64,000 nt of DNA from an uncultured Alphaproteobacteria bacterium (GTDB lineage Bacteria > Pseudomonadota > Alphaproteobacteria > Rickettsiales > UBA998): the NCBI GenBank assembly GCA_963803575.1, contig CAWDMW010000001.1, positions 16,086 through 80,085 of the forward strand. Direction: 5' to 3'. The position numbers were made by a program, and so were the translations under genes. The notes beneath the pieces are model-generated. The model was not told where the DNA came from. It saw only the letters and a program-made list of their open reading frames with translations, and searched no databases. Shown one piece after another: positions 1,199 to 34,029 of the stretch (positions within the stretch are counted from its first letter, which is position 1; every line of letters begins with the position of its first letter).

Positions 1199-2152
1199 CT
1201 ATTTTACCTTAACCGATTTTGCTGAGCCTTGCGTGATACGCCCCTGCTTGGTGATAGCAGATAAGTTCTCCCAGGCACGTTTATAATGGTACGGACTGCG
1301 TGACAGCGCGGTATTTAAGTAACTTTTTGCCAGCTCATCGTTATTCGCCAAATAAGCATATAACCCTAAATTATTGGATATAGAAGCCTCATCTAAATGC
1401 TCGGACAGGATCTTCTTTGCTGCTTTTTCATCACCAAAGATACCCATCACCAGTGCCAGATTCATATCAATGTTCTTGCGTCTGGGGCTTTTGGGCAACG
1501 TAGCTTCCGCAGCTTGCAACAGATACCTTGTTGCTGCTTTTGGTTCATTATTGATAGCATGAGTCAAACCAATATTATTTAACACGGACGGATTATTATT
1601 GCTGTATTTCAACGAACGTTCAAAATAGGCAATAGCATCATCATACGTTCCGCGCTCTACCAGCAAAATGCCCAACCCGTTCAGCGTACGCCAGCGCTTT
1701 TCGTCCTTGGTCAGGATTTGGCTAAGTTTCTTTCCTGCTTTGTCAAAGTCACCTTTATATAAAGCGACCAGCGCAATGCCTTCCTGCGCGTCCATATAGT
1801 CAGGCGAGTCTTTAGGTATCTTAAGATACACCTTCTCTGCAGAATCCGTTTGCCCATCACGCCGCAGCGCATCTGCCAGACCTAGCAGGTAATCCGTGTT
1901 TTTGTCGTCAATACTCACCAATTGCTGATAGAGAGAACCTGCATTTTTGATATTACCCCGCTCTACCGCATCTTTAGCGCTTTTGAGCAAAGACGCTTCT
2001 ACTCCTTCCACCTGAGGGCCTTCTGTCTTATTGATTTCATCAAAAAGACGGTCTTGCTCATCCAGACCGATCCCTTTCAGGCAGGCGGTGGTAGAGAGAA
2101 GAAGTGCAAGACAGAAAGCAGCATATATGGGGCGTGTAAACATGTAATGCAC
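1199..2152 (-). CDS. TPR-repeat lipoprotein (TadD/PilF-like architecture)
   Basis: N-terminal signal with LLLSTTAC (probable lipobox), followed by repeated TPR-like A..Y/A..L..P helices along the whole length. Confidence 0.65.
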   Translation of the reverse strand: MHYMFTRPIYAAFCLALLLSTTACLKGIGLDEQDRLFDEINKTEGPQVEGVEASLLKSAKDAVERGNIKNAGSLYQQLVSIDDKNTDYLLGLADALRRDGQTDSAEKVYLKIPKDSPDYMDAQEGIALVALYKGDFDKAGKKLSQILTKDEKRWRTLNGLGILLVERGTYDDAIAYFERSLKYSNNNPSVLNNIGLTHAINNEPKAATRYLLQAAEATLPKSPRRKNIDMNLALVMGIFGDEKAAKKILSEHLDEASISNNLGLYAYLANNDELAKSYLNTALSRSPYHYKRAWENLSAITKQGRITQGSAKSVKVK

Positions 2153-17841: not shown

Positions 17842-17918
17842 TGGTGGGCGGTAAGAGATTCGAACTCCCGGCCTCGTCGATGTCAACGACGCGCTCTAAC
17901 CAACTGAGCTAACCGCCC
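17842..17918 (-). tRNA. tRNA-Val (anticodon GAC), CCA encoded
   Basis: The reverse complement reads GGGCGGTTAGCTCAGTTGGTTAGAGCGCGTCGTTGACATCGACGAGGCCGGGAGTTCGAATCTCTTACCGCCCACCA. It folds by hand into a cloverleaf: 7-bp acceptor stem, anticodon stem CGTCG/CGACG with loop TTGACAT, and a TTCGAAT T-loop. Confidence 0.93.
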
Positions 17919-23952: not shown

Positions 23953-24095
23953 GATGTACTGTAGATGCCATAAAAGAATGTAATATACAACAGGCTTATC
24001 GTGATGGATAATTTATTTTAAATAGTATGCAATAATGACTTGCAGTTTTCAGCAGAGCTGTAATTGTAAAATTGTATCAATTAAAGGAATATCTT

Positions 24096-24977
24096 ATGTT
24101 ATCTTCTCAATCTAATGCCACATTCTTTACTGGCCTTGCTGTCAACACAGATGGTACCGCTTATAGCCTGGCAAATAACGGCGCAACCTTAGTGAAGTAT
24201 CATGTCGATACTCCCTTCAAAAGTACTACTATTGATCTTTCAGGTGATGTTACCAGCCTGTCAGCGCTGGATTTTCGTCCTGCTACAGGTGAGTTGTTTG
24301 GATATGATGATGCTACTGACAGTTATGTCAAGGTGAATACAACCTCTGGCAGTGTTACATCAGCTTCCGGTGATTCGGTGACTGCTACAAACACTACGTC
24401 ACTTGATATGGATTGGAACCCTACTATTGATCGTTTACGTACCGTGACTGAAACAGATCAGAATATCGTCTATAATCCGGATAGTGGTGAAGCGTCTGAC
24501 GGCTCTACAACAAGCCTGTTTTATGCTGAAGGTGACATGCAGCAGGGCGTTGATCCGTCTATCGTAGCAAACGCCTATACTAATAGCGTTGCTAATGCCC
24601 AGACAACACAGCAATACGCTCTGGATCATGCAAGCAATACGCTGGTAACTCTGGATAATAATGCAGGTACTCTTAGCACGATTGGTATGTTAACCACGAA
24701 AGATGGAATACTGGACTTCAATGCTAACGCTGGTTTAGATGTAGTCACAGATGCCAGTGGCAATAATATAGCCTATGCGAGCCTAACGTCTGACAATGCT
24801 ACCGCACTATATACGCTTGATTTAAATACGGCAAGTGCAACGATGGTTGGTATTGTTGAAAATGAAGCCGTGACCGTTGGTGCTGACGGAGGTATTTTTT
24901 CCAGTTTGGGACTAGATGGCAATAACTTTGGGATAGAAGCTGGTAGCGATATCGCTATCGCGTTTGGATTAGCTTGA
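24096..24977 (+). CDS. DUF4394-domain protein without a recognisable signal peptide
   Basis: LSALDFRPATGELFGYD, DMDWNPTIDRLRTVTETDQNIVYNPDSG, ANAYTNSVANAQTTQQYALD and LYTLDLNTASATMVG fit the DUF4394 beta-propeller pattern. I chose the ATG at 24096 (AAAGGAA upstream) over the TTG at 24072. Confidence 0.7.
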   Translation: MLSSQSNATFFTGLAVNTDGTAYSLANNGATLVKYHVDTPFKSTTIDLSGDVTSLSALDFRPATGELFGYDDATDSYVKVNTTSGSVTSASGDSVTATNTTSLDMDWNPTIDRLRTVTETDQNIVYNPDSGEASDGSTTSLFYAEGDMQQGVDPSIVANAYTNSVANAQTTQQYALDHASNTLVTLDNNAGTLSTIGMLTTKDGILDFNANAGLDVVTDASGNNIAYASLTSDNATALYTLDLNTASATMVGIVENEAVTVGADGGIFSSLGLDGNNFGIEAGSDIAIAFGLA

Positions 24978-24995: not shown

Positions 24996-25030
24996 GGGGT
25001 GCAGGTATTAGACGCCTGCCCCCTTATTCT
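24996..25030. terminator. GC-rich hairpin between convergent genes (bidirectional rho-independent terminator)
   Basis: ggggtgcagg (24996-25005) pairs with cctgccccc (25015-25023) with one bulge. It is flanked by an A-run on the left and TTATT on the right. On the minus strand the hairpin is followed by TTTTG. Confidence 0.6.
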
Positions 25031-25542
25031 ACACCAAGACTTGCTTCAAATTCTTTCATAAGCTGCATCGTATTGGTTGTCATAGACCCTCCATACATTA
25101 AAAACATATCCGCAATCTCAATAAAGCTATGCGCCACCGCACTATGCTGTTGTGGGGTAATTTTGGATAAGTGTGCCATATTACAGCATAGTTGCCACGA
25201 TCTTAGATGGTGCGTCATATCTGTTATCCCCATAGATGGGGTAGAATTATGTAAGGCATCATTCAGCTCTTCCAACACCACATCTGTCCAGTAATCAATC
25301 ATGCGTAGCTGATTTGCCGCATTATCATAGATGCGTATATGGGCAATAGATTCAGCAATTAATGCGCGCTGTACCAGTTGGTCAAACTCATCCCACCGAC
25401 CAAAATGAATACCCAGTAAGAAGATATCCTGTTCAAGCATCTTCTTTGCCTGTACCTGACTTACCTTATCTTCCCACACCTGATACAGAAGGAAAAAATG
25501 GCGACAGTAATCATCCATAATGTGGCTGGTGGATCTCATCAT
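25024..25542 (-). CDS. Hypothetical protein (172 aa), co-oriented 12 nt downstream of the J-domain gene
   Basis: Long ORF that is tightly linked to the upstream gene and followed by a terminator hairpin. No motif recognised. Confidence 0.55.
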   Translation of the reverse strand: MMRSTSHIMDDYCRHFFLLYQVWEDKVSQVQAKKMLEQDIFLLGIHFGRWDEFDQLVQRALIAESIAHIRIYDNAANQLRMIDYWTDVVLEELNDALHNSTPSMGITDMTHHLRSWQLCCNMAHLSKITPQQHSAVAHSFIEIADMFLMYGGSMTTNTMQLMKEFEASLGVE

Positions 25543-26094: not shown

Positions 26095-26140
26095 TCTGTG
26101 TTAGATCATAGCGAAACGTAACAATAATGTGAATATCTTT

Positions 26141-26416
26141 ATGCCCGACCAAACTGTTGTTGAACAGCTACACGAACTGCTACATAAAGCGTTTGATCCA
26201 TCTTTGCTGGTTATTGAGAATCAGTCAGCGCAACATGCTGGTCATATGGAAGCAGGTGACGGAGGTGACACTCACTTTCACCTCATTATAGCCAGCAAAA
26301 AACTCGATGCTAAGTCTCGTATTATGCAGCATCGTACCATATTTGAGGCGGTATCCAGCCTGTTAGATGCACCTATTCATGCATTGTCGATTGAAGTCAA
26401 ACCATCGTCTAATTAG
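26141..26416 (+). CDS. bolA: BolA-family protein
   Basis: LVIENQSAQHAGH....THFHLIIASKKLDAKSRIMQHRTIFEAV...IHALSIE matches the BolA fold signature. The track starts at the GTG at 26129; I preferred the ATG at 26141. Confidence 0.85.
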   Translation: MPDQTVVEQLHELLHKAFDPSLLVIENQSAQHAGHMEAGDGGDTHFHLIIASKKLDAKSRIMQHRTIFEAVSSLLDAPIHALSIEVKPSSN

Positions 26417-27272
26417 ATAGTTGAGGGGCTTCAATCACAGGGATAGAGAGATCGTCGGCATCAGGTGTGTTTTCTTCATTTGGTGTTGACGAAATAACAT
26501 TTCCATCCTTATCAAGCTCAAGGTCAATAAGCGCACCCTGCTCGTCCAATGGAGGCGGCGGTGGAGGTGGTGGAAGAATATCTTCGGGCTTTCCTTCATA
26601 GGTATGCATATATTCACTAAGAAATATATGGTTTGCCTGCAATGCTAGTTGCCACCTTCCTGTATTGTTATAATATTGCGGAATACTACTGGGTTCTCTA
26701 ATCATACGATGCTTAATCGTTTCTGCATGAGGTGGTAATGCATCATCCGGTTCACGCTTTGTTAATAATGCTCTGGACAATCGAGTATTTTGTGGATACC
26801 AAAGTAATGTTACATAATCAGGGTGTATATTTTTTACATATAATTCGTTTTCTTCATTATTATTCGCGTTTGTGATAGTAATGCCATTAATACGAATAAA
26901 CCACTGTGCAGGATTATGATAGATAATAGATGATAGATAAAATGATGGATAAATCAATGGAGTAAGATCATCTTCGACCTCTTCATTTTCGTCTTCAGCA
27001 AGTATATTCTCTAATTGTAGACTATTAACGTTTGTTCCATTTTGCATAGTTTCTTCTACACGTCTAATAATATCAATGTATCTGTCAATTTCTGACGGGC
27101 TAAATAAGATAGACGGGCGTATTTCTTCATAGGACGGTATAAATTTCGTTACCGGCTCTTTCACAAGCTTATTGTCCTGAGCAAACGCTGCATTCAGCAA
27201 TATACATATAGTAGAGATAAAGATAGCAATATTAGTAAGGAGATGCATTAACACTTTCCTTTTTTTGATCAA
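26409..27272 (-). CDS. Secreted protein, putative PilP/GspC-like component with a poly-proline linker
   Basis: Signal peptide ..ILLNAAFA|Q. The segment YLSSIIYHNPAQWFIRINGITIT...YVKNIHPDYVTLLW resembles the PilP / GspC-HR beta-domain pattern. It also has a PPPPPPPP run and an acidic tail. It is the last gene of the pilus-like operon (alternative start 27248). Confidence 0.45.
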   Translation of the reverse strand: MIKKRKVLMHLLTNIAIFISTICILLNAAFAQDNKLVKEPVTKFIPSYEEIRPSILFSPSEIDRYIDIIRRVEETMQNGTNVNSLQLENILAEDENEEVEDDLTPLIYPSFYLSSIIYHNPAQWFIRINGITITNANNNEENELYVKNIHPDYVTLLWYPQNTRLSRALLTKREPDDALPPHAETIKHRMIREPSSIPQYYNNTGRWQLALQANHIFLSEYMHTYEGKPEDILPPPPPPPPLDEQGALIDLELDKDGNVISSTPNEENTPDADDLSIPVIEAPQLSN

Positions 27273-27885
27273 TCCCCATCCATAAAAACGTGATATTTGC
27301 TTCTACGACTTCTGGCAATGACCCACGGCTTACTTCTATAATAACTTCTCTTGAAAAGGGTCGCTTACGACTAATTTTTACACTAGTCTCTTGTATTACT
27401 CCAGGAAATATTTTTTTAATGTTATCGATAAATGCATAAACATGCAAGTCAGTTAATGCAGAAAAAATTACTTCTACTTCGCGAAAGACAGGCTTAAAAC
27501 CAGTATATTTTTCAGAGCTTTGATTAACTAGTTCCTGTTTTGATCCGATTTTCATGCGTAGGTTATTCAACCTGTGTCGCTTGATTAACCTTCCTAATAT
27601 AGCCGCACCATGATCTGCTACCAAGCTATAATTACCATCTTCAAAACTTCTATTAATTTCCATGTATGCCGAAAAAGAGGACTCATATATTTCAAATTTT
27701 TGTTCTAACTGTGCCAGTCTATTACGTTGTTGACGCATAGACATCTCTAAAGTGGTTTTTTCTTTTTCTTTCTCTTCACTATTACTATATATATAATACA
27801 AAACCCCACTTAAAAAGAATATTACGGCAAAGACTATCATAATAACTTTAAACATTTTTTTCTTTAGACGATTTTCTTTTTTCAT
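27232..27885 (-). CDS. Bitopic inner-membrane protein, putative PilO/GspM/MshJ-like
   Basis: Short basic N-terminus, one TM (FKVIMIVFAVIFFLSGVLYYIY), a coiled coil (LEMSMRQQRNRLAQLEQKFEIYE) and a globular periplasmic domain of about 130 aa. This is the topology and size of PilO/GspM. Confidence 0.45.
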   Translation of the reverse strand: MKKENRLKKKMFKVIMIVFAVIFFLSGVLYYIYSNSEEKEKEKTTLEMSMRQQRNRLAQLEQKFEIYESSFSAYMEINRSFEDGNYSLVADHGAAILGRLIKRHRLNNLRMKIGSKQELVNQSSEKYTGFKPVFREVEVIFSALTDLHVYAFIDNIKKIFPGVIQETSVKISRKRPFSREVIIEVSRGSLPEVVEANITFLWMGIDQKKESVNASPY

Positions 27886-27893
27886 AAAAACAC

Positions 27894-29615
27894 CTAAGGA
27901 CGCTGTACGTCTTTCTGATTATGAGACTCTATGGTTATGCTAACATCAATAGTTTTGTCTTTCTCACTTTTGTTTTCGGTATAGTTTTCAAAATTTATCT
28001 CTAATTCATCCTTCTCTGAATCAATTCCAGATAATTGATTAGCTTTTAAAGTATAGCCAGTAAAAGATTCCTGCATATTTTGATAGATTTTTTTCCACCT
28101 CTCTAAAGCATCCTGATTAGCCTGCTTATTTCCGTTAACAGTAACGTTTACAATAGATTTTGATATAATGTTATCTGAGAGTATTATAGAATGATTGATA
28201 AGATCATTTTTCACAATTGGTGTAGAAGCATTATTATCTTTCGTAATACCCCATTCAAATGATGAAACTATTAGTTCTTCATTAACAAATTCAGTAACTT
28301 TATCAATTATTACTGTATATTGCGGCATGGTTTTATAAATCAGATCATTAATTTTTATCAGTGAGTCCACAATAAAAGGGTCAACTTCAAAATCAACTGC
28401 TTTTTCTTCAAAGTATTGCACTCTACGAGCTAATTGTGATTTTTCCTGATTAAGATCTACAAGCATATTCTTACTAATTAGCAACTGGTAACTGTATAAA
28501 CCAGCAGCACCAATCAAGAAAATAGATAATATCAATCCAGCTACTTTTGCTGCTTTAATACCTTTGTAATATTTTTCTATTTTTGCAATAGCATTAGGTA
28601 TTAATTTTAGCTCTGGTTTTTTAAAAATCATGAACGCAGCAGATATAAAAATATCTCCATAACGATCACCAGATAACAGTGAATGTTGTATATCTATTAA
28701 TTCTGCTGCTTCGTAAGGAGTTAGCACACGATAAACGTTAGCATTAAATATTTTTGGATCTATTTCATTCCTGATATCTTCTCCTAAAACCATCATAATA
28801 TTCAAATGCGATGTATCCGAAAAAGACAGTCTTTTCAGGTATTCAATAGTATTTTTTACTTCTTGCTCAATATTTCCAGCGACAACATTTGATTTTTCCT
28901 GATGAGAAGATTGTGCCATACGTGTAAAAACTAACTGTTCATTCTTCAAAACAACTTGTCTAAATCCTCCAGTTTTATGATGTATTACCAAAATATCCCA
29001 TTTAGTGATGTCGCTAGAGCTTTCCTTATTTGCCGATTTATCCTTTTTCTTTTTAGCAAAGAATGTCTTTTTACTGGCTTCCGGAGTAGCGTATAAAGAT
29101 TGATTCATACGCTTAATAATTTTTTGTGACTCTATAGGCGCTAAATACACTCCAGTAAAACGGTTAGGTAAATCATAAATAAGTTCACACCAATTTTTCA
29201 AAAAAGCACTATAGGACAAAGAAACAAGTAAAAAATTCCAGTCTTTTCTTCCTTTTTTATCACGACCAAGTGAAATAGCACCTTTTAAATCATCGGGGGC
29301 AAAATCACGTGCCAGACGCCGTTGAATGATTTTATTTACACCTAGTGGCGTAACAGGTGGCAATGAATGTCGTACATAAGACTGATCCATTAAATCAACC
29401 AACATATGGATAGGGGCCTGAGGATGTGTAGTCAGCAACTCTTTAAACGTATCAGTAGAACGAGAGTCATATTCAGCAGAATAAAGTCTTTTAATAACAA
29501 TATTATTCTCAAAGTAACTTAAGATAGCTCCTTCATCTCCAATAAAGAAAACAAATGCTTTTTTTAAGTTTCTTTTTGATGGTGCTTCATCGAGTCTTTT
29601 TCGCTGCTTTTTCAT
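27894..29615 (-). CDS. Putative PilM-PilN fusion (GspL/MshI-like) alignment protein
   Basis: 573 aa: about 350 aa cytoplasmic (beta-strand starts FVFFIGDEGAIL and WDILVIHHKTGGFRQVVL, as in actin-like PilM/GspL), then KPELKLIPNAI (INLLP-like), one TM at aa ~356-380 and a periplasmic domain of about 190 aa. The size is close to PilM (~350 aa) plus PilN (~200 aa). Confidence 0.5.
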   Translation of the reverse strand: MKKQRKRLDEAPSKRNLKKAFVFFIGDEGAILSYFENNIVIKRLYSAEYDSRSTDTFKELLTTHPQAPIHMLVDLMDQSYVRHSLPPVTPLGVNKIIQRRLARDFAPDDLKGAISLGRDKKGRKDWNFLLVSLSYSAFLKNWCELIYDLPNRFTGVYLAPIESQKIIKRMNQSLYATPEASKKTFFAKKKKDKSANKESSSDITKWDILVIHHKTGGFRQVVLKNEQLVFTRMAQSSHQEKSNVVAGNIEQEVKNTIEYLKRLSFSDTSHLNIMMVLGEDIRNEIDPKIFNANVYRVLTPYEAAELIDIQHSLLSGDRYGDIFISAAFMIFKKPELKLIPNAIAKIEKYYKGIKAAKVAGLILSIFLIGAAGLYSYQLLISKNMLVDLNQEKSQLARRVQYFEEKAVDFEVDPFIVDSLIKINDLIYKTMPQYTVIIDKVTEFVNEELIVSSFEWGITKDNNASTPIVKNDLINHSIILSDNIISKSIVNVTVNGNKQANQDALERWKKIYQNMQESFTGYTLKANQLSGIDSEKDELEINFENYTENKSEKDKTIDVSITIESHNQKDVQRP

Positions 29616-29617
29616 AA

Positions 29618-30820
29618 TTAGAAGTCGATTTTACTAAAAGAATCATAAAGAGGTCCAAACACAGCAGCAATTACCCAGAAGATAATGGCACCCATAACCA
29701 CTGTCATAATAGGCTGTATCAAACTAACCATGCCGTCCACAGCATCATTTACTTCACGCTTGTAAAAATAATTAATGTTTTCTAGTGCTTCACTAAGGTT
29801 TCCGCTTTCTTCTCCAATCTTGAACATACGTATAACCAAGTTTGGAAACCTACTCGACATACGTACAGATTCCGTTAGTCTGTTACCTTCCAAAACACTA
29901 CGATGGACAAGCTCAATGGTCTCTTTGAGTACACGGTTTTTAACGACATCCCGACCAGCAGTTAATGAGTCCAGTATATCAATACCACTATTAAACATGA
30001 CAGCAAAAAAATGCGTAAATCTTGCCATGTTAATTTTATTGACGACATTTCCTATCACAGGTATTTTAAGTATCATTGCATCAAATTTATACGCAAAACC
30101 ATACGAAATACTGTATAATGTTCCTACGATAACTGCCGTAATGACAGGGAGAGAGAAAACAATATACCAGTATTCCCCAAAAAACTCGGATGTTACAATG
30201 AGTGCTTCGGTATGTGCCGGTATTTCAAACCCTTGCGATATAATAAAATCAACTAATTGTGGGACAACAAATAGCATTAATATACTAATGACACCCGTCA
30301 ACACAACACCAAGGACTGCAGGGTACGTAATCGCCTTACGAACTTTACGACGTAGCTCTGAGCTCCATTTCATATGCTCGCTGAGATTCAGGAAAGATTC
30401 TTGCAAATTTCCTGTTTTTTCACCAGCGGCTATCAGCCCCACAAAAACTTCATTAAACACATTTGGATGCTTAGCAAGCGATTCAGAGAATGTCGTACCT
30501 GTTTTGATTGATTCATAAACGCTGGCTAGAATATCATGGAGCTTTGCAGAATCTGTGGCATCTCTTGCATCCGCCAATGCTTCATGCAACGGCACCCCTG
30601 CCCTGTCAAGCTGTTCCATATGAAGACAGAACACAATCATATCCTTCATCTTCACTTTAGACATGAACGAGGAACGCCGTGTTTTAGCTTCGCGGCAATC
30701 AATCAAGTCAAGCCCAAGCTCCTTTAGGCGACTTTCCAAGTCAAGCTCATTTCCGGCCATTAATTCGCCTTTCATCGTGCGACCGTTTTCGTTTACTGCG
30801 CGATAATTGAATGTATACAT
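29618..30820 (-). CDS. Type II secretion / type IV pilus platform protein (GspF/PilC family)
   Basis: 400 aa with two T2SSF repeats, each with a cytoplasmic helical bundle plus TM helices (..FSESLAKHPNVFNEVFVGLIAAGEKTGNL.. and ..LTESVRMSSRFPNLVIRMFKIGEESGNL..). Confidence 0.9.
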   Translation of the reverse strand: MYTFNYRAVNENGRTMKGELMAGNELDLESRLKELGLDLIDCREAKTRRSSFMSKVKMKDMIVFCLHMEQLDRAGVPLHEALADARDATDSAKLHDILASVYESIKTGTTFSESLAKHPNVFNEVFVGLIAAGEKTGNLQESFLNLSEHMKWSSELRRKVRKAITYPAVLGVVLTGVISILMLFVVPQLVDFIISQGFEIPAHTEALIVTSEFFGEYWYIVFSLPVITAVIVGTLYSISYGFAYKFDAMILKIPVIGNVVNKINMARFTHFFAVMFNSGIDILDSLTAGRDVVKNRVLKETIELVHRSVLEGNRLTESVRMSSRFPNLVIRMFKIGEESGNLSEALENINYFYKREVNDAVDGMVSLIQPIMTVVMGAIIFWVIAAVFGPLYDSFSKIDF

Positions 30821-30830
30821 AATGTTTTTC

Positions 30831-32900
30831 CTATAGCCTGTCAGTCACATCCACGCTGCCGACCAGCTCTTTAACATCAATTTCCCCTTGCAGCACTTTG
30901 TCTATTCCATCATCAATCATGGGAATAAATCCCTTGCTCAGAAGATACTCTGTCATCTGATTGCGCGTAGCACCCACCGTAATTAATTCGTCCATACCGC
31001 GATCAACTGGCATGATCTCTATCATCGCCGTGCGCCCTTTATATCCTTTCTGACGGCACGCTGGACATCCAACCGCCTCATATATTTCTGGTGGATCATC
31101 CACAGGCTTTCCAAGCACTTTGCATTCTTGTGGAGTGGCTAATCTTGGACGTTTACACTCAACACATAATTTACGTGCTAAACGCTGAGCCACACCACAT
31201 ATCAGCGATCCGGCCAACATATGAGATGGAACGCCAATGTCATTTAATCTGGGGATAATTCCAAGCGCATCATTCGTGTGTAGAGTGGAGAATACCTGAT
31301 GCCCTGTTAGCGCAGCACGCACAGCATTCAGCGCCGTATCTTCATCGCGTACCTCACCAATAAAGATGATATCAGGATCCTGGCGCATCAGAGATTTGAT
31401 TCCGGTTGAAAATCCGATCACTCCTTCTTTTACATTGGTTTGACGTATCAATGGCAATTCATATTCCACCGGGTCTTCTAATGTCATAATATTGACATCA
31501 ATCGAATTAATGTAATTGAGTATGGAATAAAGTGTGGTTGTTTTTCCGCTTCCTGTTGGCCCCGTAACGATGATAATGCCTTCCGGACGTTTCAATAACT
31601 TTTTGAGCAAGGTCATATTATGCTCACTGAATCCTAAAAACTCTAACGGAAGAATAGATTTAGACTTATCCAACAGTCGCATAACAATGTTTTCACCAAA
31701 TACGGTGGGTTGGGTAGCGACACGAAAATCAACTTCCCGTCCAAGCGCATTAAACGTAATACGTCCATCCTGAGGCATTCGTGTCTCGGCGATGTTCATA
31801 CCTGACATGATTTTGATACGCACCGCGATTGCCGACCAATAATCACGGTGAAAGGTACGCACTTGCATTAACTGCCCATCTACCCTGTAACGTAGCCGCA
31901 AAAACGTTCCTTCAGGTTCAAAATGTAAATCTGATGCTCCCTGCTTCACGGCATCAATCAATAAGGCATTGACAAGCCGGACTGTAGGGCTAACGTAACC
32001 ATCTTCACTGCCATCTAATATACTCGCATTATTGTCACGGATACCCGTCTCAATTTCTTTCAAAATACCATCAACCGATATTTCGTAATCATAATATCGG
32101 TTGATTAGCTCCTGTATCTCGCTATCAGTACAATAAAGTTGTTTTACGTTAACGCCTTTGGGCATATGGCGGCGTAGGGCATCTGTGGCCAGCACATCAT
32201 AAACATCAAGCATGGCTACTTTGAGTTCATTTCTCTCAAGCGAGATGGGAACGATTTTATGCCGTACCGCTACCTCTTTGGGAATCATTTTGATGATAAC
32301 CGGGTCAAGCATCATTTTCTTTGCATCAAACCGCTCTGTACCTGTTGATTCTGCCAGCACTTCGGCAAGTGCGCTTTCTGTGATAAAGCCGAAATCCACC
32401 AAAATATGCCCAAGCATATCTTTTGTGCGTTTTTGTTCTTGCAGTGCCACATCCAACTGATCGCGAGAAATCAGACCCATAGTAATAAGCTGTTCACCCA
32501 AACGCATTTTTGGAGCGTTTTGTGTCTGGCTTTTGCCTGCATTAACCGGTAGCAAGCTTTCATGCTCCCCTGTCAGCAATCCTGAATGTAGTGATGCCGT
32601 GATATAGTCCGGTAAGGGCTGCAAGGCCTCGGAATTTGGTTCAGGCATCTCCGCTTCTACGGTCGTTGTTTCAGGATCAGGTAACACGTAACGACTATGG
32701 TCGCCTGATGCTTCTGTAGGTGGTTCTACGTTCTCAACCGGTGTCTCTATCGCATCGTTAGTGGATTGCTCCGCTTCAAATGCCACGCGCTGCTGGCGTA
32801 AAAAATTATCATAATCAGACATAACCTGTTTGTCTTCAGATGCTACAGTTGCAGCAAGCTCGTCATTGTCTGATGTATGATGATAGTCGTGCGGGTGCAT
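30831..32900 (-). CDS. GspE/PilB/MshE-family secretion ATPase with an MshEN-type N-domain and an acidic N-terminal extension
   Basis: Walker A GPTGSGKTT, Asp/His boxes and Walker B (IIFIGEVRD), tetracysteine CVEC..CPAC, and a T2SE_Nter region with a tandem RLGxxLIxxGLI....L...L..Q motif. The first ~131 aa are acidic and probably disordered. Confidence 0.92.
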   Translation of the reverse strand: MHPHDYHHTSDNDELAATVASEDKQVMSDYDNFLRQQRVAFEAEQSTNDAIETPVENVEPPTEASGDHSRYVLPDPETTTVEAEMPEPNSEALQPLPDYITASLHSGLLTGEHESLLPVNAGKSQTQNAPKMRLGEQLITMGLISRDQLDVALQEQKRTKDMLGHILVDFGFITESALAEVLAESTGTERFDAKKMMLDPVIIKMIPKEVAVRHKIVPISLERNELKVAMLDVYDVLATDALRRHMPKGVNVKQLYCTDSEIQELINRYYDYEISVDGILKEIETGIRDNNASILDGSEDGYVSPTVRLVNALLIDAVKQGASDLHFEPEGTFLRLRYRVDGQLMQVRTFHRDYWSAIAVRIKIMSGMNIAETRMPQDGRITFNALGREVDFRVATQPTVFGENIVMRLLDKSKSILPLEFLGFSEHNMTLLKKLLKRPEGIIIVTGPTGSGKTTTLYSILNYINSIDVNIMTLEDPVEYELPLIRQTNVKEGVIGFSTGIKSLMRQDPDIIFIGEVRDEDTALNAVRAALTGHQVFSTLHTNDALGIIPRLNDIGVPSHMLAGSLICGVAQRLARKLCVECKRPRLATPQECKVLGKPVDDPPEIYEAVGCPACRQKGYKGRTAMIEIMPVDRGMDELITVGATRNQMTEYLLSKGFIPMIDDGIDKVLQGEIDVKELVGSVDVTDRL

Positions 32901-33051: not shown

Positions 33052-34029
33052 ATGTATATATTACTAGCCCTATGCATTGGGTTGCTGTCAACTCATGCAA
33101 ATGCTATTGAACTAACGCTACCTATAGACTGTGAGGTTGGTAAAAACTGTTTTATCCAAAATTACGTCGATCAGCAACCGGGTGAGAAGCATCAGGACTT
33201 TATGTGTCGCCCGCTCTCGTATGACGGCCATAAAGGAACAGATTTTCGCATCCCCGTATTTACCGTTGAGCAGGAGACGCCAAATGTCTTAGCTGCAGCA
33301 GATGGAACTGTTTTGTCTGTGCGTGATGGTGAGATAGATGCGCTGATTGGTAATAAAGATAAGCCGGACAGCACCGGAAAAGAATGCGGTAATGGTCTAG
33401 TCATCAAACATGCTGATGGCTGGCAAACGCAATATTGTCATATGAAACAATCATCTGTCGCTGTTAAAGCAGGAGACATGGTTACAGTCGGTGATGTGCT
33501 TGGTCAGGTTGGATTATCAGGGAAAACAGAATTTCCCCACTTGCATCTGTCTGTACGCAATGCAAAGGGCGATACAATAGACCCTTTTACGGGTGAACAA
33601 ATGGAATCAGGATGCTCAAATAATGTCAGCAGTCTGAAGCCTTTATGGTCTGCACAGACGCTCGCTGCTATGCCAGTAAGTGCGTACGGACTAATAGATG
33701 CCTCTATTGCTGATGAAATGGTTACCGTGCAAGACGTGATGCTTGGGAAGCATCATGCGAGTGGCTTATCCAAAGACGCGCCTGCAATCGTTGTGTGGGC
33801 TGTTGCTTATGGCCTGACGCCCGATATAGGTATGACCATCATGTTATTTAACCCTGAAAATCAGGTGATGGCGCAAAAAACTTTTAAGCCTGAACGGTTC
33901 AACGCGCAATATATTGGTATGGTGGGCAAGCGTAACAGTACAGATGCGCCTTGGCCACCCGGAGAATATGCAGCCAAGATTGTTATTGGTAACAAGCCCG
34001 TACATACCATCACATTCACAGTAGAATGA
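33052..34029 (+). CDS. Secreted M23-family metallopeptidase
   Basis: Signal peptide, then HKGTDFRI, DG..TQYCHM and EFPHLHLSV (the H.H zinc motif of LytM/M23). Confidence 0.85.
   Translation: MYILLALCIGLLSTHANAIELTLPIDCEVGKNCFIQNYVDQQPGEKHQDFMCRPLSYDGHKGTDFRIPVFTVEQETPNVLAAADGTVLSVRDGEIDALIGNKDKPDSTGKECGNGLVIKHADGWQTQYCHMKQSSVAVKAGDMVTVGDVLGQVGLSGKTEFPHLHLSVRNAKGDTIDPFTGEQMESGCSNNVSSLKPLWSAQTLAAMPVSAYGLIDASIADEMVTVQDVMLGKHHASGLSKDAPAIVVWAVAYGLTPDIGMTIMLFNPENQVMAQKTFKPERFNAQYIGMVGKRNSTDAPWPPGEYAAKIVIGNKPVHTITFTVE

Follow-up and report, generated by a model that had tools for sequence, protein, structure and literature searches.

A five-gene operon of an uncultured Rickettsiales bacterium as the probable core of a scattered type IV pilus machine, with a predicted PilM-PilN fusion

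We analyzed a 64,000-nucleotide (nt) stretch of contig CAWDMW010000001.1 (assembly GCA_963803575.1), which derives from an uncultured alphaproteobacterium of the Rickettsiales; this whole stretch is called the window below. Five co-directional open reading frames (ORFs) on its minus strand constitute one operon and encode, in this order, an extension ATPase, a platform protein and three proteins named here ORF3, ORF4 and ORF5 (Table 1). The operon very probably specifies those core parts of a scattered type IV pilus (T4P) machine that lie in the cytoplasm and the inner membrane; traits of type IVa pili (T4aP) and of mannose-sensitive hemagglutinin (MSHA, or MSH) pili are mixed in this machine. 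The system is not new in kind. It represents a known machine in variant form, three of its parts being unannotated, and it leaves the current understanding of type IV filaments unchallenged. An earlier note on this DNA had offered two alternatives, a very derived, scattered T4aP/MSHA-like machine or a repurposed module, and the first of them is borne out by the evidence given here.

Motor, platform and three unannotated inner-membrane families

The five genes are tightly packed. Gaps along the operon are 10, 2 and 8 nt long, and ORF4 and ORF5 overlap by 41 nt if ORF5 starts at its TTG or by 17 nt if it starts at an ATG. The first gene encodes an ATPase whose domain order is an acidic low-complexity N-terminus, an MshEN module, an MshEN/GSPII_E_N domain and a T2SSE core (Pfam: T2SSE, 6.7e-117, 390 bits versus a cutoff of 24.9; MshEN, 3.7e-14). 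The best-scoring NCBIfam equivalog is PilB (TIGR02538, 506 bits, under the cutoff of 675.65), and GspE (TIGR02533) scores 489 bits, under its cutoff of 630. The model NF053729 ("cyclic di-GMP-binding domain, MshE-related") is matched with 66.1 bits, over the cutoff of 38, and the tandem motifs in this region are of the RLGxxLIxxGLIxxxxLxxxL type. Among solved homologs, Thermus PilF and Myxococcus/Geobacter PilB are nearest, with GspE farther away. A tetracysteine site, which is typical of PilB/GspE-type ATPases, is present. Family scores and solved homologs thus agree with the PilB/MshE-type identity proposed for this protein in the earlier note.

The second gene was previously assigned to PilC/GspF, and this assignment holds. 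The Pfam model T2SSF matches the protein in two stretches (6.4e-52), corresponding to two T2SSF domains; three hydrophobic segments are present, and the nearest solved chain is Myxococcus xanthus PilC (3.6e-55). In an independent assembly from the same sample (L001), the platform gene is split into ORFs of 231 and 152 amino acids (aa) by a one-base homopolymer difference (GGG versus GGGG; window position ~30160, L001 position ~1333), which is the sole difference over 13.6 kb. The split is most likely an assembly artifact, strain heterogeneity being possible. Pseudogenization of the platform gene was considered and rejected, a single-nt homopolymer difference between assemblies being no sign of it.

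ORF3 is, according to its modeled fold, a fusion of PilM and PilN. No Pfam or NCBIfam family, PilM_2 and PilN included, was matched by ORF3 or by any of the 31 relatives aligned with it, and the homologs of ORF3, at least 439 in number, are all annotated as "hypothetical." The AlphaFold2 (AF2) model, built from the 32-sequence alignment, has a predicted local distance difference test score (pLDDT) of 81 overall and of >90 over most of residues 20 to 400. When this model was compared with the PDB by Foldseek, PilM structures ranked first (5eou, 5.2e-9; 2ych, 5.7e-8; 3jc8_Ma, 2e-7), followed by FtsA and then by the cytoplasmic domains of PulL, EpsL and GspL (1.8e-6 to 6.7e-6). Residues 26 to 29 form a phosphate-loop-like GD(E/D)G motif that is invariant in the family. 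The protein comprises approximately 350 cytoplasmic residues, one transmembrane (TM) helix and 193 periplasmic residues.

The junction and the C-terminal part of ORF3 point to PilN. The linker that precedes the TM helix has the family consensus KK-x-RL[KR]L[LNM][PST] (for example, RLRLLPTY), with L336 and L338 nearly invariant; it resembles the "...NLLP" N-terminus of free PilN, which binds PilM. Judged by its sequence, the linker closely resembles the relic that would be expected from a read-through fusion of neighboring pilM and pilN genes. A profile search against PDB sequences gave M. xanthus PilN (3jc8_Na) as a weak top match (E=0.062) over aa 349 to 459, that is, over the TM helix and the coiled coil. 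The model of the periplasmic part shows the order helix 433-441, strands 448-459 and 483-494, helix 500-517, and strands 521-525 and 555-564; this αββ-αββ arrangement after the TM helix is the PilN/PilO/EpsM fold. The fusion had been suggested earlier from size and topology, and it is now supported by the PilM-first ranking in Foldseek, the PilN profile match over the TM helix and coiled coil, and the PilN-like linker. A fused PilM-PilN with a PilN-type motif would be a natural test case for PilM-PilN coupling.

ORF4 is paralogous to the periplasmic half of ORF3. When the ORF4 family profile was aligned by hhalign with the profile of ORF3 residues 336 to 573, a probability of 95.6% and an E value of 1e-8 over 125 columns were obtained. 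PilO stands in the same relation to PilN, and GspM to periplasmic GspL, which makes ORF4 the predicted PilO/GspM equivalent; the PilO/GspM-like character first noticed for this 217-aa protein is upheld by the paralogy. An N-terminal TM helix (aa 14 to 32) is followed by a coiled coil and a globular C-terminal domain. No Pfam family, PilO included, matched any of 45 family members or their consensus, and a search of PDB sequences with the ORF4 profile hidden Markov model (HMM) returned coiled-coil noise only. With individual E. coli sequences as counterparts (GspL, GspM, GspC, GspB, HofM, HofN, HofO and HofP), hhalign gave no signal, a result that carries no weight because HofM was missed even against the PilM-fold domain.

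ORF5 is probably the PilP/GspC/GspB-type link to the secretin, an assignment that we make from sequence with moderate confidence. The protein has 287 aa if read from its TTG, whereas public gene calls start at the internal ATG (279 aa). At its N-terminus it has a hydrophobic stretch, a signal or an anchor; a variable linker comes next, then the conserved β-core and a tail rich in Pro. A word-indexed search with ORF5 returned solely ORF5 itself. In an exhaustive HMM search with the conserved core, at least 1,093 family representatives (50% identity level) were found, and for 706 of these the E value was ≤1e-10. The Pfam family T2SSB (PF16537) matches below threshold, with E=0.026 for ORF5 and E=0.014 for the family consensus. 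This match recurs in 18 of 136 diverse family members (best E=4.4e-5) and always falls on the same β-core; any other Pfam family matches at most 2 of the 136. The periplasmic domain of GspB/OutB has the homology region (HR) fold shared with GspC and PilP and binds to the secretin's N0 domain, and OutB is laid out as membrane anchor, variable linker, HR domain and C-terminal extension (PMC9239104). Since E. coli K-12 GspB itself fails to match T2SSB, it is useless for calibrating this signal. Of the PilP/GspC-HR-like segment that the earlier note had seen in ORF5, the HR-like part is thus supported by the recurrent sub-threshold T2SSB match, whereas neither a PilP match nor a canonical lipobox was found.

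Table 1. Coordinates of the operon genes and of the features located in their products (window numbering)
Feature	Position	Strand	Basis
PilB/MshE/GspE-family extension ATPase, 689 aa	30831..32900	-	Pfam and NCBIfam
Two tandem MshEN motifs of the ATPase, aa 133-185: RLGEQLITMGLISRDQLDVAL, 5-residue spacer, MLGHILVDFGFITESALAEVL	32346..32504	-	NF053729 and motif location
Walker A GPTGSGKT of the ATPase, aa 447-454	31539..31562	-	Motif location
Tetracysteine site of the ATPase, CVEC (aa 579)...CPAC (aa 612), span aa 579-615	31056..31166	-	Motif location
Polytopic PilC/GspF/MshG-like platform protein, 400 aa	29618..30820	-	Pfam, NCBIfam, PDB homolog
ORF3, predicted PilM-PilN fusion, 573 aa	27894..29615	-	AF2 fold, PilN-like motif, TM
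Predicted cytoplasmic actin-like domain of ORF3 (PilM/FtsA/GspL-cyto fold), aa ~18-330	28626..29564	-	Foldseek
Linker motif KKPELKLIP of ORF3, aa 332-340	28596..28622	-	Alignment of 32 family members
Single TM helix of ORF3, aa 355-380	28476..28553	-	Hydropathy; inside modeled long helix 341-406
Predicted periplasmic coiled coil and αββ-αββ domain of ORF3, aa 381-573, PilN/GspL-peri-like	27897..28475	-	AF2 model and ORF4 homology
ORF4, bitopic PilO/GspM/MshJ-like protein, 217 aa	27232..27885	-	Paralogy to the ORF3 C-terminal part
ORF5, exported/anchored periplasmic protein, probable HR-domain (PilP/GspC/GspB-like) connector	26409..27272	-	Recurrent sub-threshold T2SSB match
β-core of ORF5, aa 109-158, sub-threshold match to T2SSB (GspB)	26799..26948	-	PF16537

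Conservation of the operon and location of the remaining pilus genes

Relatives were sampled with one genome per species; 112 loci were found, of which 80 were kept and examined with neighborhoods of ±10 kb. The order ATPase-platform-ORF3-ORF4-ORF5, whose conservation the earlier note had left to be checked, is kept in approximately 65 to 70 of the 80 loci, and the exceptions are mostly truncated contigs. ORF4 follows ORF3 directly in 70 loci and ORF5 follows ORF4 in 64. Because the five-gene order recurs across different species-level genomes, the arrangement is not due to chance. ORF3, ORF4 and ORF5 are the fastest-diverging members, with 20 to 47% identity to relatives versus 50 to 85% for the ATPase and the platform protein.

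Further pilus genes adjoin the operon in these genomes. In most relatives, two convergent genes for PilT/PilU ATPases of ~375 aa lie downstream of it (417 and 472 bits versus the TIGR01420 cutoff of 319). Pilins of ~250 to 300 aa (FSLVELSIVLVILGLL...) are encoded near the cluster in 7 of the 80 loci, and in L003, which is among the closest relatives of the window, a pilin gene comes immediately after ORF5. L038 has a complete A24 prepilin peptidase with both domains (A24_N_bact, 8e-30; Peptidase_A24, 6.5e-17), and L055 a fragment of one. Searches by phmmer (queries, E. coli GspD and HofQ) did not reveal a secretin in the ±10-kb neighborhood of any of the 80 loci, nor was a secretin among the matches listed (top 25 families) in a Pfam scan of 73 large unassigned neighbor ORFs.

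In the window itself, no class III signal was found in any ORF or stop-to-stop segment, phmmer with E. coli GspD, HofQ and GspO revealed neither a secretin nor an A24 peptidase, and PilT/PilU were not found in the 64 kb. The statement of the earlier note that the window lacks a pilin, a prepilin peptidase and a secretin was thereby reproduced. A contig from the same sample (L084) overlaps exactly with the last bases of the window and extends 9,090 bases beyond it. Three tandem paralogous prepilin genes are located there (L084:667-2966), encoding proteins of 241, 267 and 256 aa with 29 to 34% mutual identity. In window coordinates, the trio corresponds to ~70125-72424 (+), 6 to 8 kb past the right edge and ~37 kb from the operon. 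The class III signals read MSG/FSLLELSIVLTIV, ...QHG/YTLIELSISITLI and ...SQG/FSLIELSIILTIF, and all three proteins pass TIGR02532 (16.6, 24.1 and 20.0 bits versus a cutoff of 16.3). Since the prepilin genes lie just outside the window, "no pilin" is true of the window only. The absences had been taken as the sign of an undescribed or repurposed system; this argument is left unsupported, given the prepilins in the same genome and the relatives with pilins, PilD and PilT/PilU. An A24 prepilin peptidase was absent from the window and from L084. The prepilin trio is adjoined by a gene for an EAL-domain protein of the cyclic di-GMP (c-di-GMP) phosphodiesterase type (L084:3861-5102), which may be relevant because the pilus ATPase has a c-di-GMP-binding MshEN module.

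A separate observation concerns a 784-aa protein of the relative L045 (L045:17907-20261, minus strand). It has a pilin-like N-terminus, …RDG/FSLLQTSIILMMAALVLV, with Gln for Glu at position +5. Its first ~260 residues are like the pilins of the window genome, and the remainder consists of FG-GAP repeats (2e-43). By sequence, it looks like a modular pilin-adhesin.

The pilus of this lineage has already been published. The operon is present in the metagenome-assembled genomes UBA6178 (L013), UBA6189 (L050), RS372 (L010), UBA3002 (L017) and UBA998 (L009), all of which belong to or cluster with Ca. Mitibacteraceae, deep-branching Rickettsiales (Schön et al. 2022, PMC9352585). T4P were reported for Mitibacteraceae and Athabascaceae in that study, which also infers them for the last common ancestor of the Rickettsiales (Schön et al. 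2022, PMC9352585). In Supplementary Data 4 of that study, these genomes have one PilB, one PilC, a PilD and a pilin orthogroup of 6 to 57 copies, and there is one secretin orthogroup, 90% of whose members KEGG places in mshL (K12282) (PMC9352585). The earlier note had named a case that would speak against its proposal, and it is essentially what we found: close relatives carry the same cluster as part of a published pilus system, with pilins and secretin encoded elsewhere (PMC9352585). T4P were proposed to be an ancestral Rickettsiales trait and the organelle of first attachment to eukaryotic hosts (PMC9352585, PMC10847448).

The pilin orthogroup (0244Y) has 57, 11, 6, 23, 48, 13 and 22 copies per Mitibacteraceae/Athabascaceae genome (PMC9352585). 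Such a large pilin expansion is unusual for T4P and, as far as seen, the main text does not take it up (PMC9352585).

For the same taxa, Supplementary Data 4 has no PilM, PilO, PilP, mshI, mshJ or mshK entry (PMC9352585); Schön et al. 2022 and Castelli et al. 2024, using MacSyFinder and KEGG, detected pilins, PilB, PilC, PilD and the secretin only. Inventories without PilM, PilN, PilO and PilP left the completeness of the machine in question. We regard the window operon as belonging to the same machine, of which ORF3, ORF4 and ORF5 would supply the unlisted parts. The gap in the alignment complex would thus be filled by three conserved "hypothetical" families that are missed by Pfam, NCBIfam, KEGG and MacSyFinder models. 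What is new is these three alignment-subcomplex families and the B-C-MN-O-HR operon without a linked secretin. Models built from the three families would sharpen T4P detection across a large uncultured alphaproteobacterial clade.

Taken as one machine, the components would work as follows. A PilB-like hexameric ATPase would drive the polymerization of pilins, acting via the PilC-like platform, and the MshEN module at its N-terminus probably renders assembly responsive to c-di-GMP. ORF3 would set an actin-like cytoplasmic ring below the membrane and, above it, an αββ domain in the periplasm, with the linker predicted to dock onto the PilM domain of its own polypeptide. The periplasmic domain would pair with its paralog ORF4, the PilO equivalent. 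ORF5 would sit on the ORF3/ORF4 pair, and its HR-type β-domain most likely meets the N0 domain of an outer-membrane secretin. Pilins are encoded elsewhere in the genome, three of their genes lying ~37 kb off; the prepilin peptidase, the secretin and the retraction ATPases are likewise to be expected at other places in the genome.

Relation to known systems and alternative readings

The operon shares many traits with the T4aP of Myxococcus xanthus, Pseudomonas aeruginosa and Thermus thermophilus. Its ATPase is closest to PilB/PilF and its platform protein to PilC; it encodes a PilM fold, a PilN-like motif, TM helix and coiled coil, and a paralogous pair of the PilN/PilO type. PilT/PilU-family ATPases are adjacent in relatives, and the genes are spread over several loci. 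It differs from T4aP in that PilM and PilN form a single fused polypeptide, the ORF3 to ORF5 families are unmatched by Pfam PilM_2, PilN, PilO and PilP, and the ATPase bears an MshE-type c-di-GMP module and scores under the equivalog cutoffs. The gene order, too, is B-C-MN-O-P instead of pilMNOPQ, and the PilP-like gene is followed by bolA, not by a secretin gene.

MSHA pili of Vibrio offer a second comparison. There, a fusion of the PilM/PilN type (MshI) precedes the PilO-like MshJ and the small protein MshK, and the gene order is I-J-K-L-M-N-E-G-F. The window operon would correspond to the order E-G-I-J-K, with the secretin outside the operon and PilT/PilU adjacent in relatives, by which it differs from MSHA. 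The N-terminus of its ATPase is of the MshE-related, c-di-GMP-binding kind and scores above cutoff, and a conserved tetratricopeptide repeat (TPR) protein near the cluster in relatives recalls MshN. No MshM/ExeA-like ATPase was seen, and no match was obtained for ORF3 to ORF5 with the MSH-associated Pfam models considered (e.g., T2SSM_b). A further likeness is that the secretin orthogroup of related Rickettsiales was assigned to mshL (PMC9352585).

Several results weigh against a T4P with this assignment of parts. The ATPase and the platform protein both score below every NCBIfam equivalog cutoff, and therefore no subclass is fixed among T4aP, MSH and type II secretion systems (T2SS); the best NCBIfam score of the platform protein is for GspF. 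In this genome, a secretin, a prepilin peptidase and PilT/PilU are shown neither by the window nor by the ~9 kb beyond it, and the window locus lacks the adjacent pilT/pilU genes of most relatives, so that lineage decay is conceivable. For ORF5, the HR assignment is based on sub-threshold matches. Its AF2 model, built from 8 sequences, is poor (pLDDT of 51), Foldseek with this model gave nothing below E=0.27, and the profile search against PDB sequences returned FN3/titin-like strands, neither PilP nor GspC. Homology of ORF5 to FN3/titin was itself rejected, these matches being read as generic β-sandwich strand patterns.

The alternative that survives best, though improbable, is that the operon encodes a T2SS inner-membrane platform (GspE, GspF, a GspL-like fusion, a GspM-like and a GspB/GspC-like protein), which would build a short pseudopilus to push folded proteins out through a secretin, without forming a surface pilus. 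GspL is naturally a PilM+PilN-type fusion of an actin-like domain, a TM helix and a periplasmic domain, as ORF3 is predicted to be, and the cytoplasmic domains of GspL, EpsL and PulL are significant matches in the Foldseek search; PilM, however, outranks them. Similarly, the periplasmic part of ORF3 and ORF4 pair like periplasmic GspL and GspM, and the only signal of ORF5, together with its layout, is that of the T2SS protein GspB/OutB. Yet ORF3 to ORF5 and their families lack matches to Pfam T2SSL, GspL_C, T2SSM and T2SSC, although E. coli GspL, GspM and GspC are recognized when searched in the same way, and neither the PDZ domain of GspC nor an adjacent GspD is present. For the platform protein, NCBIfam favors GspF (308 bits, cutoff 424) over PilC (250 bits), whereas its best solved homolog is PilC and the ATPase is nearer to PilB/PilF than to GspE. 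Two of the three prepilins of this genome match GspH or GspG weakly. Against this stand the two PilT/PilU ATPases beside the cluster in most relatives, since T2SSs use no retraction ATPases. No gspG-K pseudopilin operon was found in the window or in the 80 neighborhoods; instead, the pilin families are large (~250 aa) and highly expanded (PMC9352585).

It is still less probable that the genes are intact while the machine no longer works, the operon being a leftover of the ancestral pilus that is decaying in a lineage restricted to hosts. The absence from the window locus of the pilT/pilU, ABC ATPase and TPR genes that adjoin the operon in most relatives would fit such decay, as would the GC content, which is 32% in ORF3, 33% in ORF4 and 37% in ORF5 versus 44% in the window overall (ATPase, 45%; platform, 40%) and the repeated loss of T4P in crown Rickettsiales (PMC10847448). 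However, all five ORFs are full length with catalytic and invariant residues kept, the tandem pilin genes are intact, and the split platform gene of L001 is most likely an assembly artifact. A repurposed motor-platform-alignment module working without pilins or secretin, finally, is very unlikely: a pilin, a peptidase and a secretin are indeed missing from the 64-kb window and from beside the operon, and no neighborhood (±10 kb) among the 80 relatives yielded a secretin (phmmer, E. coli GspD and HofQ), but gene scatter is usual for T4aP, the HR-like signal kept by ORF5 implies a secretin partner, prepilins occur in the same genome, and in relatives this operon has pilins, PilD and PilT/PilU in its vicinity, with a secretin encoded elsewhere (PMC9352585).

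With the core of a scattered T4P as the preferred reading, a further and more tentative proposal can be made, which we consider possible but hardly the likelier outcome. The cluster may represent a distinct, unclassified lineage of type IV filament machines, limited to basal Rickettsiales and to uncultured Alphaproteobacteria related to them. It would be marked by the fixed B-C-(M-N fusion)-O-HR operon, a GspB-like HR connector in the place of PilP, an MshL-like secretin with its gene outside the operon, a c-di-GMP switch of the MshE type, retraction by PilT/PilU, and expanded, large (~250-aa), modular pilins. If true, this would be a chimeric T4aP/MSH/T2SS design, perhaps for attaching to host or prey cells, and would deserve a class of its own beside T4aP, type IVb pili, MSH, T2SS, Com and Tad.

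Neighboring genes

At its 3' end, ORF5 overlaps the convergent bolA gene (26129..26416) by 8 nt, and on the other side, an M23 peptidase gene (33052..34029) is divergent from the ATPase gene, with 151 nt between them. Both flanking genes, like the gene positions, gaps and overlap within the operon and all five ORFs, reproduce what the earlier note had described. The motifs quoted there were all located as well (Walker A, CVEC...CPAC, the TM helices of ORF3 and ORF4, and the N-terminal hydrophobic stretch of ORF5). A promoter and terminator scan of the operon gave no signal above chance, and likewise none above chance for an internal terminator. No window protein bears a name in any public source.

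In relatives, an M23 peptidase gene is often found near the operon. An ABC-type ATPase gene (~248 aa, Pfam ABC_tran) adjoins it in 65 of the 80 loci (e.g., L038:13268-13996 and L003:5205-5981), where it comes next after ORF5 or, in divergent orientation, ahead of the ATPase gene; it is absent from these positions in the window. The ABC ATPase was considered as a part of the system and set aside as a syntenic neighbor, and an SQS_PSY gene was likewise set aside as a neighbor.

A secreted Ala/Pro-rich TPR protein (~520 to 630 aa) is encoded after pilT/pilU in 36 of the 80 loci (e.g., L038:17231-19132, minus strand). The window has a 317-aa TPR protein at 1199-2152 (minus strand), for which the earlier note had proposed testing a pilotin role (PilF/PilW). 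It scores 57.2 bits with PilW (TIGR02521, cutoff 154) and 25.1 bits with Tgl (NF033762, cutoff 225), both far under cutoff, and we regard it as a generic TPR protein. The match between the TPR protein of relatives and that of the window is weak (E=4e-7), and neither reaches the PilW/Tgl cutoffs.

Two other proteins are encoded in the vicinity: a DUF4394 protein (3e-47) at 24072-24977 (plus strand) and a 172-aa protein without a family match at 25024-25542 (minus strand). The two are flanked by bolA and a DnaJ-domain protein, neighbors of the operon, on one side and by a CbbQ/AAA_5-type ATPase on the other. As far as seen, neither has any relation to the pilus operon. A lone tRNA gene at 17845-17918 (minus strand) is the sole Rfam match in the window at the gathering threshold.

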